Notes: generated by a model not told the origin, from the sequence alone. A stretch of 64,000 bases of DNA from a virus (IMGVR_UViG_3300042868_010125:1-64000), one strand, 5' to 3'. Numbered from the stretch's first letter, positions 588-63,079 are shown. Program-made: numbers and translations.

Positions 588-766
588 TGGTACTAGGTTA
601 CCACAATTAGTGCAGGAAAGTAGAGTTTTGGCTCAGCAATCCTCGCAAATAAGCCCATTTCTGTAGTCTCTCTCGTCTACAGCCATAGATTTACCGCATT
701 TCCAACAAGAAATATAAATGATTTGTTTTTTGATGGTTTTCATCTAAATACCCCCCTTTAGGTTAA

Positions 767-795
767 ATAGTACCACCTTCCTGACAAATAGTCAA
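767..795 (-). promoter_or_regulatory. sigmaA-type promoter
   Basis: TTGACT-17-TACTAT. Confidence 0.7.
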
Positions 796-1043
796 AGACA
801 CGCCGAGACAGCAAAAAGCCCCCTAGTCCCAAACAAAGTTTCAGGCAACAAACAAAGTTTTTAGGGGGCTTCTTGCCAAACCTATCTTTTCGGCTTACTT
901 CTCTCTGCTAGCCAGAGTAGCCGTAGCAATGGATGTAAGACCAAACGCTACCGTGTAAGTCATATTGTCCTGCCAAGCCGAGACTAGGGTTGCAAAACCT
1001 AGTACCAGAGTTCCAACAGCAGTCCAGACTATGTTTAAGTTAT

Positions 1044-1241
1044 TCATTTGTTGCCCTTCTTTTTAGGTTTAGTCCTACCCCTCAGGCGAGAAGAAGGATC
1101 TCTTAGTTGCGCTCCACCATTACGGATAGCCTTCCTAGCAGTTCTATAACAAACTCCTAGTTCAACCGCAACACTATCTATAGCCAGACCAGAAGTATAA
1201 AGTTCTGCAGCCCGACCCTCAAGTTTTTTACTTTTTGCCAT
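1044..1241 (-). CDS. Small helix-turn-helix DNA-binding protein
   Basis: AAELYTSGLAIDSVAVELGVCYRTARKAIRNGGAQLR, an actinobacterial HTH pattern. Confidence 0.65.
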   Translation of the reverse strand: MAKSKKLEGRAAELYTSGLAIDSVAVELGVCYRTARKAIRNGGAQLRDPSSRLRGRTKPKKKGNK

Positions 1242-1590
1242 TGAATCCAGAACCCTTTTTTCTCTTAACGGCTCTGTAAATTAAAACTCCAAACAAAACC
1301 GCGAGTGCCGCAGGCGTGTAGACGGAGATGTCAAAGAAGTTACTAGACAACTCAATCCACTCAAACCTACAAGCAAAATCACAGTCAAGCAGTATTTCTG
1401 TTTCTTCCATTAGATTCCTTCTTTCACTTTGTTGTAATGAAGTTCAGCCAGTTCCTTGCGTAGTCTGTTGTTCTCCTGTAATAACTTACCCTGAGCCCTA
1501 ATACCAACCACCATGACAAAGCATGAGCCGGCGAGCGCAATCATAATTCCAATAAGTGTTCCCGTGTCAAGAACCATTTTTTACTTTTTC

Positions 1591-58426: not shown

Positions 58427-58572
58427 AAAAGTGCTCTATAATAAAGGTAGATTTATAAACACTTTTTTATAAAATAAAAAGTAAGAGTACTAAAAATCTT
58501 GTAGAATAGGCAAAGACCTGCTTAGTTTTATCTCGTTCAGACGTGTTCGAGTGAGAGTATTTTGGAGATTTA

Positions 58573-60873
58573 ATGCCATATCCAGAGGATGTATCCACTA
58601 GAACGATTGTAGGTAGTTTTACATCTACAGACGGTAGTCCTGCCTCGGGAACAGTAACTTTTACTCCATCTGGAAGAATTTTAGATGCTGATGACACACA
58701 AATTATTTCTGGTCCTATAGGGGAAACTTTAGATGGTTCGGGTGAATTCTCAATTGAACTACCATGTACAGATGATAGAGATTTATCTCCAATCGGTTGG
58801 TATTACACAGCGACAGTAAGAATTTCAGGGGCTAGGGCTTATAGTTTTAAATTTTATTTATTAACTGGTGCAAATGAAGTTGATTTTTCTAATTTAGATA
58901 GAGTAACTCCAGTATCAAATTCTCAAGGAGCATTTGCTTCATCTAGAGGTCCAGTTGGTCCTCAAGGTAGTACAGGTCCAACAGGTGTAACAGGAAGAAC
59001 TGGTTCTACTGGTGCTACTGGTGCAGGAAATACTGGTGCTACAGGACCGACGGGTCCAGCGGGTGCACCAACAGGTGCTACTGGTGCTACTGGTCCAACT
59101 GGAAGTACAGGTTCTACAGGAAGTACTGGTGCAACTGGATCTCCTGGAACATCTATAAATGTTCGTGGAAGTGTTGCAGCAGTTGTTAACTTACCATCAA
59201 GTGGTAACGCAACTAATGATGCATATATTGTTGATGCTGATGGTGATTTATATGTTTGGGGTGGATCTAGTTGGAGCAGTGTAGGACAAATTGTTGGTCC
59301 TGCTGGTGCAACTGGTAATACAGGTGCAGGTCAAACTGGAGCAACTGGTCCAACAGGTTTAGTTGGTGCAACAGGTGCAACAGGTGCAGGTGAAACTGGA
59401 GCAACAGGTAATACAGGAAGTACAGGTTCAACTGGACCAACTGGTACTGGTAACACTGGTGCAACTGGTGCCACTGGTGCTGGCTCAACTGGTGCAACAG
59501 GTGCTACTGGAAGTAATGGAGCAACTGGTAGTACAGGTGCAGTTGGTGAGACTGGGGCACAAGGAAATACAGGTGCAACTGGAAATACAGGAGCAGATTC
59601 AACTGTTGCAGGGCCCACAGGTTTAGTTGGGGCAACTGGTGCAACAGGTGCAAGTATTACTGGAAATACAGGAGCAACTGGTAATACAGGTGCACAAGGA
59701 AATACTGGTGCACAAGGTGAAACAGGTGTAACTGGAAATACAGGAGTAGGGGTAACTGGAAATACAGGTGCGCAAGGTGAAACTGGAGCACAAGGAAATA
59801 CAGGTGTAACAGGTCAAACTGGAGCAAGTATTACTGGTAATACTGGTCCTACAGGAGCAGATTCAACTGTTGCAGGACCCACAGGAGCACAAGGTAATAC
59901 AGGTGTAACTGGTGCAAGTGTAACTGGGCAAACTGGTGCAACAGGAAATACAGGTGCACAAGGTGAGACTGGTGCACAGGGTAATACAGGTGTAACAGGA
60001 AATACTGGAGCAACTGGTGCTGACTCAACTGTTGCTGGTAATACAGGTGCAACAGGTGCAACTGGTGTTACAGGTGCAAGTATTACAGGACCAACTGGAG
60101 CAACTGGCGCTGACTCAACTGTTGCAGGACCTACTGGACCTACTGGTTTAACAGGTGAAACTGGTGCAACAGGTGCAAGTATTACAGGACCAACTGGAGC
60201 AACTGGTGTAACTGGCGCTGGGGTAACAGGTGCTACAGGACCTACGGGTCCAGCGGGTGCAGGCTCATCTGTTTATATTGAAAAATACCAAGTACAAAGT
60301 ACTTCTGGTGAAGAATTTTATTTACACTCATATGATGTTGATCAAAAATCAGCACTTACATGGAGTCGCTCTACTACAACATTAACAATTACATCTGCAT
60401 CACACGGACTAACAACTGGAGATAGAGTAATTATTAGAAATACAAACGTTGCTGGTGCTCAATCTTTAACAGTAACAGTTTCAGACTCTAATACATTTAC
60501 CGTGACTGTAGCCAACACAGGAAGTAGTAATGGTGTCTCTGGAAGTTACTCAAGAGGCTTTAATATGTCTAGAGTTACATCAACAGTGACTTTATATGCT
60601 CCTTCTGGAACAAACACTGTTACTCTTTTAGGAGGCTCTATGAGACTTCCTTCTAGCGTAACATCTCCACTTATTTTTAACTATGCAGCGGTGGGAATGA
60701 ATTCCAGTGCAGCAGATAGATATCCTCCACAGATATTTGCATGGCGTGATGATACATATGCTCAAGTAACTCCCAACTCAAGTCTATATAGTTTAATGAG
60801 TTCTTCAACATATGACCAAGTTCAACTGGGAATGCCAGCAGCTAACAGACTTATTAGATTTAGTTTTGCGTAA
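58573..60873 (+). CDS. Collagen-like (G-X-T) virion fibre protein
   Basis: Long GATG/GNTG/GPTG triplet runs. Confidence 0.85.
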
Positions 60874-60889
60874 AAGGAGCTGTTAAAAA

Positions 60890-63079
60890 ATGAAACCCTT
60901 ATCAGGTAGATTTTCAATAGTTTCCGTAACGGAAACCTCAGCTGGGATTTACGACTTAGTAGGTTCTTTTGTCGATGAATCAGGTTTATATGGGCCTTCA
61001 GATGTTGCCTTAGGACAACGTGTATATGTCTATGATAATAATGCAGGAGCAATTCGTTATGAAATTACTGCGTTAAATGATGTTTCTTCAAACCCTATAG
61101 AAATAGAAGTCACCTGGGATTCTGCTGGAACTGCTATAGAGCCAGGGGCTACTAACGGAGTAATTTTAGATGTAACTGATAATTTATTACTTCCAGAACA
61201 ACCTTCTTTTACTCAGCAAAACATAGAAGAACTTTTAACAGCTGGAATTATCGCTGAGACATATAGAGAGCAACTAGATTCTATACAAGGAGTAACTGGT
61301 TCTTTAGCGGATTATGTCCCTCTTACTCAAAAAGGTACTGCAAGTGGTGTTGCAGAACTAGATGCTGATGCAAAAATTAAAATTTCTCAACTACCAGGGT
61401 TATCAATATCTGACTCATACCCCGTTGCTAGTGAGACTGCAATGCTCGAGTTGGTTGTCGAGCGTGGCGACCTTGCAATTCGTTCAGATATAAATAAGAC
61501 ATTTGTATTTGCTTATGACCCATTTTCAATAACAAATAAATTATTATCAGGCAATGTTGCAACACTAACATCTTCAGCAAACCACAATTTAACAGTGGGA
61601 GATACAGTAGTTATTAGTGGCGTAGATGCCACATTTGATGGAACTTATGCAGTAACTGCTACCCCCACTGACACTACTTTTAGTTATGCAAAAACAGCGT
61701 CAAATGTTTCTACATTAGCAGTATCCCCAGCGGGATTGATGGTTCAAAAAGACAACTGGCTTGAACTTCTTAGTCCTACAGCAGGTGGAGCAACGGGTGC
61801 TACAGGTGCAACTGGTGCTACAGGTGTTACAGGACAAACTGGCGCTACAGGTTTAACTGGTAATACAGGAGCAACAGGATTAACTGGTGTTACAGGAAAC
61901 ACTGGAGCAAACGGTGAAACAGGTGCAAACGGTAATACAGGTGCAACTGGCGCTACAGGATTAACTGGTGCTACTGGTGCTACTGGTGATGCATTTGGAA
62001 TTTATTATTTAGGAAACTACAACCCATCATCTGGTTACGTCCCAGACATTGCGGTAGTAAGAGGCTCTGATGGACAACTCTATCTTGCTAAAGCGAGTGG
62101 TCAACTAGGCGACCCGATTAATTATTTAAGCAATGGCCAGTGGGAAATTTGGATACCTAAAGGAACTGATGGTGCAACAGGTGCAACTGGTACAAGTGTA
62201 ACTGGTAATACAGGTGCAACAGGAAATACTGGAGCAACTGGTGTTACAGGTATCACCGGAGCAACTGGCTCTGGTGAAACTGGTGCAACAGGAGCAATTG
62301 GAAATACGGGTGCTACTGGTTCAACAGGAGCAACTGGTAACACAGGTGCACAGGGAAATACTGGAGCAACTGGAGAGAGTGGAGTATTTTCTACAGCAGA
62401 AGATGTAGCACCTACAGGAGCAGTTACAGGTGATGTTTGGTTTGACCCAGCAAATGGAATGATGTTTGTTTATTATGATAATTTTTGGTTACAAGCATCT
62501 AGCAATGCTATTGGAGATGTAGGTGCTACTGGTGCTACTGGTGTTACTGGTGCAACTGGAAATACAGGTGCACAAGGTAGTACTGGTGTAACTGGAAATA
62601 CAGGTGCAACAGGGAATACAGGAGCAACTGGTGCTACTGGTAATACTGGTGCCTCAGCATCTGACCTAACTGAATGGTCAGCTTACACACCAACAATCAC
62701 ATCTGACAGTGGCACATTCACTCTAGGTAATGGCACATTAACTGGACGATATAAGCAAATAGGAAAAACTGTTTTCTTCCATGTAAAACTTATCTACGGC
62801 TCGACATCATCTCCAGGCACTGGTCACTGGAACTTTAGTCTTCCAGTTACAGCACAAAACTCAAACTTTACGTTTTCAGCGGCAATTCTTGATGATGCAG
62901 CTTCTTGGTACGGTGGCATAGGAAATGGTAACTACACAGGTTCAACCACAAGCTTTGCAGTAATTATCCCTGGCACAAATGCTGCTGTCACAACGTGGGC
63001 AGTAGTCGGTAACGGTGGTCCGTTTGAGTGGGGAACTGCAGATAACATCACAATTTCAGGAAGCTACGAAGCAGTCTAA
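60890..63079 (+). CDS. Collagen-like (G-X-T) virion fibre protein
   Basis: Three G-X-T blocks; fibre-tip-like C-terminus [10 protein letters not shown]...ISGSYE. Confidence 0.85.

Follow-up and report, generated by a model that had tools for sequence, protein, structure and literature searches.

The window analysed here, the first 64 kb (64,000 nucleotides) of a single 101,596 bp virus contig with a GC content of 41% (IMGVR_UViG_3300042868_010125), carries two dialects of the Shine-Dalgarno (SD) ribosome site. On the minus strand at 0.6-17.8 kb, sites of the form A(2-4)G(4-6) precede about 20 of 40 genes, against 3-7 of ~120 genes outside it, whereas the left arm outside this module and the minus-strand block at 81-101 kb have GGAG-like or weak sites. 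The dichotomy is strongly non-random, conserved and selected, and it marks the probable early-gene module of the phage. The same module encodes a conserved RNA whose C-rich loops are complementary to the GGGG-type sites, and which may read them.

Two ribosome-site dialects

The original prediction had divided GGGG and GGAG sites between the left and right arms of the genome. To check this, the 24 nt upstream of every candidate start were printed and the motif coordinates computed. At all 18 left-arm starts that had been listed, A(0-4)G(4-6) is found with its last base 4-9 nt from the ATG, and two further GGGG starts, 6111 and 17840, can be added (Table 1). The 14 listed right-arm starts all have GGAG, GAGG or GGAGG 2-10 nt upstream, and the four exceptions are as described (14923 is GGAG; 28031, 48567 and 56926 are GGGG). 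The claimed AA(A) prefix is likewise present, with A at positions -1 to -3 before the G run in 78-92% of sites. Spacers are 4-11 nt at all 20 module GGGG sites, and the genes behind them have orthologues in relatives. The genome arm, however, is the wrong unit, as the GGGG form is confined to a module at ~0.6-17.8 kb rather than to an arm or a strand; the minus strand at 15.2-22.9 kb has 1 GGGG and 6 GGAG sites, and the minus block at 81-101.6 kb has 1 GGGG and 10 GGAG. The description of either side as mostly of one type was also too strong, since about half of the module genes are GGGG-type and many plus-strand genes have weak sites or none (71 genes: 23 GGAG/GAGG, 18 weak, 27 without a recognisable SD).

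The gene set consisted of home-made calls with gap filling and inspection by eye, and for statistics the starts were picked solely by 16S pairing energy. On this basis, GGGG-type sites precede 15 of 38 genes at 0.6-15.2 kb (minus strand) versus 7 of 120 elsewhere (Fisher p = 2e-6), and the ratio of GGGG to GGAG/GAGG is 15:4 at 0.6-15.2 kb and 7:40 elsewhere (p = 1.4e-6). The energy-based choice of start is wrong at 4373, 13205 and 14157, which leaves three more GGGG starts uncounted. A scan made without gene calls shows GGGG clustering in the module likewise, and of 21 occurrences of the 7-mer AAAGGGG in 101.6 kb, 14 are minus-strand ribosome sites at 759-15113.

Strong sigma-70-like promoters have a closely similar distribution. 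With a strict search (TTGAC[AT], 16-18 nt, TAnnnT-like -10 box), 18 of 25 such promoters fall on the minus strand at 795-17173 and 7 in the other 84 kb, on both strands; many module promoters have an extended TG. As host-type promoters cluster there, the GGGG domain is probably read by the main RNA polymerase of the host and would hence be early, which makes the earlier designation of GGGG genes as early genes plausible. A strong promoter lies within 17-25 nt of approximately half of the GGGG genes, and the remainder are inside operons. Thus, the motif is not part of the promoter, and GGGG as promoter architecture was rejected, about half of the sites being in operons and far from any promoter.

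The dialect was followed in relatives through the CobT-like protein encoded in the module, a search for which returned 33 loci at 42-96% identity. Loci of at least 64% identity carry an intergenic 14-mer, AGCAAAAAGTAAAAA (10-19 copies), together with AAAGGGG on the gene strand, whereas loci of 59% or less have neither. In three near-complete relatives the dialect is clustered in the corresponding module: AAGGGG-N-ATG occurs 13 times at 3.9-18.9 kb and 5 times elsewhere in G001 (133 kb, complete); in G002 (127 kb) ~17 copies lie at 79.9-97 kb, where AGGAG-N-ATG is found once against more than 50 times outside; and in G003 7 copies lie at 79-88 kb. In the outgroup G004 AAGGGG-N-ATG appears once and AGGAG is used freely in the early module, and more distant relatives without the dialect have AAAGGA or AGGAG in the module. 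GGGG enrichment was not found in the closest named phage, the distant Actinomycetia phage DSL-LC01 (lake water; 47% identity on the CobT-like protein, GC 54%). The ribosome site of the CobT-like gene itself changes with identity from AAAGGA (42-51%) to AAAGGG (53-55%) and AAAGGGG(G) (64-96%); the enriched 5-mers shift in parallel, distant groups favouring AAGGA/GAAAG, an intermediate group AGGGA and the clade AAGGG/AGGGG. As the module genes are vertically inherited across the family, and GC is equal inside and outside the module (0.39-0.44), it follows that the dialect evolved in place and has been maintained, having arisen inside the phage family. In orthologues of several genes from lineages 58-96% identical, the G run is kept while the flanks drift, although AAGGAG is the commoner form in candidate hosts, which argues for selection on the G.

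In Georgenia and in four Actinomycetota genomes of 1.3-1.5 Mb, the 3' end of the 16S gene reads GGAUCACCUCCUUUCU. With this canonical candidate host tail (CCUCCUUUCU), pairing of GGGG to 16S does require G:U, as had been proposed. The site AAAGGGGG pairs with the tail 3'-UUUCCUCC-5' with one G:U and so possesses SD complementarity, and AAAGGGGG(U) pairs over 8-9 positions with G:U replacing A-U. This longer pairing accounts for both the AAA that precedes the G run and the U that often comes after it. Against the 16S tail, module sites reach a mean of -9.5 kcal/mol and other genes -7.3 (p = 2e-4). Five candidate host genomes contain 95-149 copies of AAGGAG-N-ATG and 37-58 of AAGGGG-N-ATG each, the former ~2.5x commoner; both exceed reversed-pattern controls, so that the GGAG and GGGG forms both work in such cells.

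Table 1. Coordinates of the early module, its ribosome sites, RNA elements and comparison sites in the window
Position	Strand	Feature	Start codon or remark
600..17860	minus	Early-gene module (putative)	~40 small genes, 18 near-consensus host-type promoters; contains all window GGGG-type SD sites except three
751..759	minus	SD AAAGGGGGG	ATG 743, 7 nt downstream
1852..1860	minus	SD AAAAGGGGG	ATG 1842
2029..2036	minus	SD AAAGGGGG	ATG 2023
2794..2799	minus	SD AGGGGG	ATG 2786
3006..3014	minus	SD AAAAGGGGG	ATG 3000
3562..3569	minus	SD AAAAGGGG	ATG 3556
4381..4384	minus	SD GGGG	ATG 4373 (HslV-like peptidase gene)
5682..5690	minus	SD AAAAGGGGG	ATG 5673; G run kept in orthologues of seven lineages
6117..6121	minus	SD AGGGG	GTG 6111
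6502..6508	minus	SD AAAGGGG	ATG 6496
7235..7241	minus	SD AAAGGGG	ATG 7229
8322..8329	minus	SD AAAGGGGG	ATG 8317
8776..8782	minus	SD AAAGGGG	ATG 8770
11119..11126	minus	SD AAAGGGGG	ATG 11110 (CobT/vWA-like gene, 591 aa)
12293..12300	minus	SD AAAAGGGG	ATG 12285 (MoxR-like AAA ATPase gene)
13213..13220	minus	SD AAAAGGGG	ATG 13205
13904..13909	minus	SD AGGGGG	ATG 13898
14162..14168	minus	SD AAGGGGG	ATG 14157
15107..15113	minus	SD AAAGGGG	ATG 15099
17852..17857	minus	SD AGGGGG	ATG 17840 (or GTG 17846)
25961..25966	plus	SD AAGGAG, other dialect	ATG 25972
31104..31110	plus	SD AAAGGAG, other dialect	ATG 31117
40854..40859	plus	SD AAGGAG, other dialect	ATG 40864 (tail-fibre-like gene)
45410..45415	plus	SD AAGGAG, other dialect	ATG 45421
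28017..28022	plus	SD AGGGGG, GGGG-type exception outside module	ATG 28031
56910..56916	plus	SD AAAGGGG, exception outside module	ATG 56926
4697..4803	minus	Conserved three-hairpin RNA	107 nt, single copy
9270..9330	minus	16-bp hairpin just after the CobT-like stop	Loop UACCCCUUU, then UCCCCUUUG
3001-3322, 3557-3800, 7696-7942, 14158-14533, 17138-17669	minus	AAGTTGTTTGTAG-type repeats	
29861-29934	plus	tRNA-Gly (anticodon UCC)	Sole Rfam match at gathering score in the window

A conserved three-hairpin RNA in the module

A small RNA (sRNA) had been predicted at 4696-4800, and a conserved element with a covarying three-hairpin structure is indeed found at 4697-4803. Hairpin 1 has the loop UUAAUCCCCUUUU and hairpin 2 the loop GGACUACCCCUUCA, so that CCCCUUU (UCCCCUUUU) and ACCCCUUC are displayed; hairpin 3, a C6/G6 stem with a U-rich tail behind it, forms the terminator. 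The predicted fold has an energy of -49 kcal/mol (z = -4.9). In the covariance-model alignment 93.5% of cells pair and 23 of 25 pairs are changed on both sides, a result matched by 0 of 500 shuffles, although this count leans towards structure as the alignment was fitted to the RNA model; an independent RNAalifold run gives compensatory changes in all three stems (10 of 25 pairs). With the covariance model, each clade locus yields a single RNA and some outgroups yield weaker matches, and the RNA is single-copy and inside the GGGG domain in the present contig (G000) and in G001-G003. All 13 strong homologues conserve a hairpin 1 loop of C4-6UUU(C) and a hairpin 2 loop of ACCC(C)UU on covarying stems, and the loop resembles the 16S tail with U replaced by C.

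The distance from the RNA to the next gene ranges from 40 to 660 nt among relatives. Such variable spacing argues that the RNA is not a leader, and a role as cis leader of the adjoining 81-aa gene was rejected on this ground. No Rfam family other than the tRNA reached the gathering score in the window, with nothing significant on the RNA, and the RNA model had no match in the 101 genomes searched, from one candidate host Actinomycetota order. The RNA has a conserved structure and its own terminator, and it is not tied to the gene downstream. One copy of the 14-mer AGCAAAAAGTAAAAA lies 22 nt upstream of the RNA, and TAAACT follows the 14-mer by 8 nt; other copies of the 14-mer share no -10 box.

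What may read the GGGG mark

The early genes had been proposed as selective targets of the sRNA, and its loops UCCCCUUUU and ACCCCUUC are complementary to the dialect and predicted to favour module sites. Predicted loop-to-site energies are -11.5 kcal/mol for the module versus -6.3 for other genes (p = 1.5e-9), and the real loops outperform 200 of 200 shuffled loops in predicted binding of module initiation regions. At GGGG-type sites the predicted pairing with the RNA loops (-15.0) is stronger than that with the 16S tail (-10.8). On the sense strand of the module CCCCTTT has three copies only, all exposed in intergenic hairpins; one belongs to the RNA loop, and the other two to the hairpin that follows the CobT-like gene, within its loop or next to it (Table 1).

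The latter hairpin has counterparts in relatives (L005-L034), where its CU-rich loop is kept. In L024 the loop reads CCUUUUCUC, and GAGAAAAGG, the ribosome site of the CobT-like gene, is complementary to it over 9 nt. A nested hairpin, GUGCGUCCUUCCAACGCA (loop CCUUCCA), is set in a longer stem ~20-90 nt after the CobT-like stop in L010-L016, L020 and L024, and is absent from the window's own subclade.

Co-occurrence of RNA and dialect among relatives, which had been put forward as a check on the proposed link, holds in part. Relatives in which no RNA is detectable (the L021 and L026-L031 groups and DSL-LC01) also have no dichotomy, so that no case of the dichotomy without the RNA was found; in the other direction the association fails, as L020 and L036 have RNA homologues but no dialect. 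A rough grading is apparent: relatives without the RNA have AAGGA/AGGAG, those with UCCCUU loops are enriched in AGGGA, and those with C4-6 loops have GGGG. In L018, L019 and L023 (53-55% identity) early starts often follow a repeat ACTAGGGAAAGG(A/G), and CUAGGGA is complementary to the terminator loop UCCCUAG of their RNA homologue; this match may be chance, CCCTAG being frequent on that strand.

From these data the following scheme may be drawn. Some 40 small early genes would be transcribed by host RNA polymerase from ~18 near-consensus promoters, and about half of them present an extended SD, A(2-4)G(4-6), typically AAAGGGGG then U or A, that pairs with the canonical actinobacterial tail (3'-UCUUUCCUCCA-5') over 7-9 positions with G:U for A-U, whereas the sites of replication, structural and fibre genes are weak or of the shorter form (U)AAGGAG(A/U). 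Kept by selection, the central G would serve as a class mark, cheap at the ribosome and making the site a perfect complement of C-rich loops, and its most likely reader would be the 107-nt RNA that the phage itself encodes in the early module. By pairing with AAAAGGGGA or GAAGGGGU, the loops UCCCCUUUU and ACCCCUUC would mask the ribosome site on early messages, while GGAG sites would be spared owing to an A:C mismatch. Translation of the early genes would thereby be damped or shut off collectively and with a delay, following the logic of T4 RegB by means of base pairing as in the actinobacterial 6C and Listeria LhrC RNAs. That the RNA reads the dialect is plausible and coherent, if somewhat short of probable. 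The analysis establishes the dialect with its domain and conservation, the structure of the RNA and the complementarity, from which we infer binding, repression, early timing and in vivo selectivity. Only tentatively do we extend this to a private early ribosome-site code, silenced regulon-wide by a 16S-mimic phage sRNA to which late GGAG genes are immune, in a widespread phage group.

A number of observations weigh against a reading by the RNA. Half of the module genes are without the GGGG mark. RNA homologues in relatives that have no dialect (L020, L036) imply that the RNA predates the dialect and must once have served some other purpose. In a matrix of loop against site-flank energies no dominant diagonal was seen, own-clade loops fitting no better than those of others, and the flank logos match the 16S-tail prediction as well as they match the loops. 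A 13/13 pairing with the gene 3000 site and a 12/13 pairing with gene 2023 are not kept in L007 and L009, where the loop is identical, and both were accordingly set aside as chance beyond the core. The GGGG share is only moderate in the lineages whose loops have six Cs (L012-L014), and at least three small proteins (8412-8588, 13891-14157, 21226-21435) share the distribution of the dialect. As RNA and dialect are nested in one clade, their co-occurrence represents few evolutionary events, and the energy contrast of -11.5 versus -6.3 kcal/mol is partly circular, since a run of C will bind any run of G. An early-type -35 box was not found upstream of the RNA, and early transcripts show no avoidance of GGAG (observed/expected ratio 0.90). 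Depletion of AAGGGG outside the module is uninformative, the motif being equally rare in module coding sequence.

An alternative, which we regard as somewhat unlikely, is that there is no dedicated reader and that the dialect adjusts translation through the ribosome itself, long 16S complements (AAAGGxGGU, 8-9 nt) letting early messages out-compete host messages from the outset. The central G:U would then stop the ribosome from being held too tightly, late genes, expressed once host messages have disappeared, would manage with short AAGGAG or none, and the C-rich RNA would act elsewhere, e.g. on host messages, or have a structural role. In its favour, the 16S tail predicts both the AAA prefix and the U often found behind the G run, module sites bind the tail more strongly, many GGGG genes lie 17-25 nt from a strong promoter of their own, and candidate host genomes normally use GGGG-type sites (37-58 per genome versus 7-31 for the control pattern). 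Distant relatives also use a 3'-shifted AAAGGA register in the module with no C-loop RNA, and RNA homologues occur without the dialect. Tuning to the ribosome nevertheless leaves unexplained why, across lineages, the wobble position is held by G although host genomes and the other phage genes more often have A there, why two or three module hairpins show the exact complement, otherwise absent from the strand, and why the length of the loop C-run roughly tracks that of the G run among relatives.

The conserved complementary loops are equally unaccounted for if the reader is a protein, that is, a sequence-specific phage or host endoribonuclease, translational repressor or activator recognising AAAGGGG on early messages, with the RNA unrelated or a decoy titrating nothing relevant. 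Precedent exists in T4 (PMC3014915), most of the ~40 module proteins have no known function, and the three small proteins noted above (58, 88 and 69 aa) follow the dialect among relatives. Yet none of 43 left-arm proteins could be assigned to a nuclease or RNA-binding family in Pfam or PHROGs, the two best small-protein candidates yielded nothing informative in the Atlas, and the ratio of 0.90 shows that GGAG is not avoided in early transcripts, so that a GGAG nuclease which early genes escape is unlikely; we consider a protein reader improbable. Phage genomes are mosaic and the gene calls are home-made, and the dialect might in principle be a by-product of an imported module, local composition, gene-calling bias or chance. 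Equal GC in and outside the module, vertical orthologues, a site in one gene that changes along the tree, gene-call-free scans that cluster alike in four genomes with far lower reversed-pattern controls, and Fisher p values of ~1e-6 make this highly improbable. Import and composition artefact were specifically rejected on the same GC, the vertical orthologues and the graded CobT-like site.

Phage setting and known systems

The phage is a freshwater actinobacterial phage from an abundant uncultured group. The contig is estimated to be 76% complete, relatives being 123-133 kb, and a terminase search alone gave 442 relatives; a megablast of 4.7 kb against a phage collection gave no match. Genes run on the minus strand at 1-22.9 kb, on the plus strand at 23-81 kb (three short exceptions) and on the minus strand again at 81-101.6 kb. 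The left minus block has small genes together with those for a MoxR-like ATPase, a CobT/vWA-like protein, a subtilase, an HslV-like peptidase, a phosphatase and a WhiB regulator. The plus block encodes a class II ribonucleotide reductase, tRNA-Gly, terminase (51967-53385), tail-fibre and collagen-like proteins, and the second minus block encodes DNA polymerase, helicase, exonuclease, Sak4 and tail proteins; no portal or major capsid gene was identified among the contig proteins scanned. The WhiB gene in the module and the nearest cellular homologues of the reductase, which are from Micrococcales (61-63% identity), indicate an actinobacterial host.

Further features of the module may bear on its regulation. 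The 14-mer AGCAAAAAGTAAAAA has 16 intergenic minus-strand copies at 1235-19103 and one plus-strand copy at 3749; it was considered as a MotA-like box and rejected, as no fixed -10 box lies downstream of the copies. A second intergenic word, AAGTTGTTTGTAG, with close variants, has at least 9 copies in the left arm, often near the 14-mer (Table 1). Gene 3556 has, between a promoter TTGACT-17-TATACT and its GGGG site, a leader of ~100 nt that contains a long stem (CGGUAGGGGGAAGUCG...CGACUCCCUACCG; 3557-3660, minus) and may be regulatory. In the gene for the WhiB-family regulator (16775-17137, minus) the -10 box (TAGCAT) ends 7 nt before the ATG, such that its message is probably leaderless; leaderless messages are common in actinobacteria.

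Temporal control in phages is usually explained by transcription, and to our knowledge class-wide translational control is known in detail only for T4 (RegB, RegA), where RegA recognises its own sites on messages. RegB cuts the GGAG SD sites of T4 early messages, its own included (PMC3014915). The likeness to the present case is that one ribosome-site variant is favoured on early genes (here 15-20 of ~40 vs 7 of 120), that a single trans-acting early product could inactivate the class while sparing most middle and late messages, and that the gene of the effector itself is in the early class. Here, in contrast, the mark is AAAGGGG rather than GGAG, the host is an actinobacterium, and the proposed effector would be a base-pairing RNA rather than a RelE-like nuclease. 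No RegB/RelE-like endoribonuclease was found among the 43 left-arm proteins in Pfam or PHROGs, many of which are of unassigned function.

The 6C RNA (Rfam RF01066) shares with the phage RNA C-rich loops on at least two hairpins and the same host phylum; for the phage RNA, pairing with G-rich ribosome sites is predicted from complementarity and energies. The 6C loops bind the AGGGGGG ribosome site of panD, as compensatory mutations prove, and it represses translation without need of a chaperone (PMC6486639). The phage RNA differs in having three hairpins with CU-rich CCCCUUU(C) loops that resemble the 16S tail, in being phage-encoded, and in that the proposed targets are the phage's own early genes. 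The 6C covariance model gave no match at E up to 10 (window 4600-4900; L014 15280-15520), and a 6C search in three actinobacterial genomes gave none either, but its control barely responded. In Listeria LhrC and staphylococcal RsaE/RoxS-type RNAs, several redundant CU-rich motifs in loops or linkers similarly bind ribosome sites, and the apical hairpin GCGGUUAAUCCCCUUUUCCGC of the phage RNA resembles the LhrC hairpin GCGGUUUACUCCCUUUUCCGC. The LhrC model (RF00616) gave the best Rfam score, 17.8 bits versus a gathering score of 110 (E = 2.7), and the phage RNA is thus not a member. These Firmicutes RNAs are chromosomal and stress-responsive, whereas the RNA described here is phage-encoded and is accompanied by a class-specific ribosome-site dialect.

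The proposed link would thus combine known kinds of control, namely occlusion of ribosome sites by an sRNA and class-specific sites as in T4. It is possible, rather than probable, that this is an RNA-based counterpart of T4 RegB and the first dialect evolved for addressing by the sRNA of the phage itself. If so, ribosome-site variants can serve as an address code, G:U wobble lets one site serve two partners, and phage sRNAs can govern the programme of the phage and not only host genes. Even without the RNA link, the dialect is useful as an early-gene marker in these metagenomic genomes, and it implies for gene callers that one ribosome-site model per genome is insufficient. A sequence-level mark separates early from later genes in abundant, uncultured freshwater phages.

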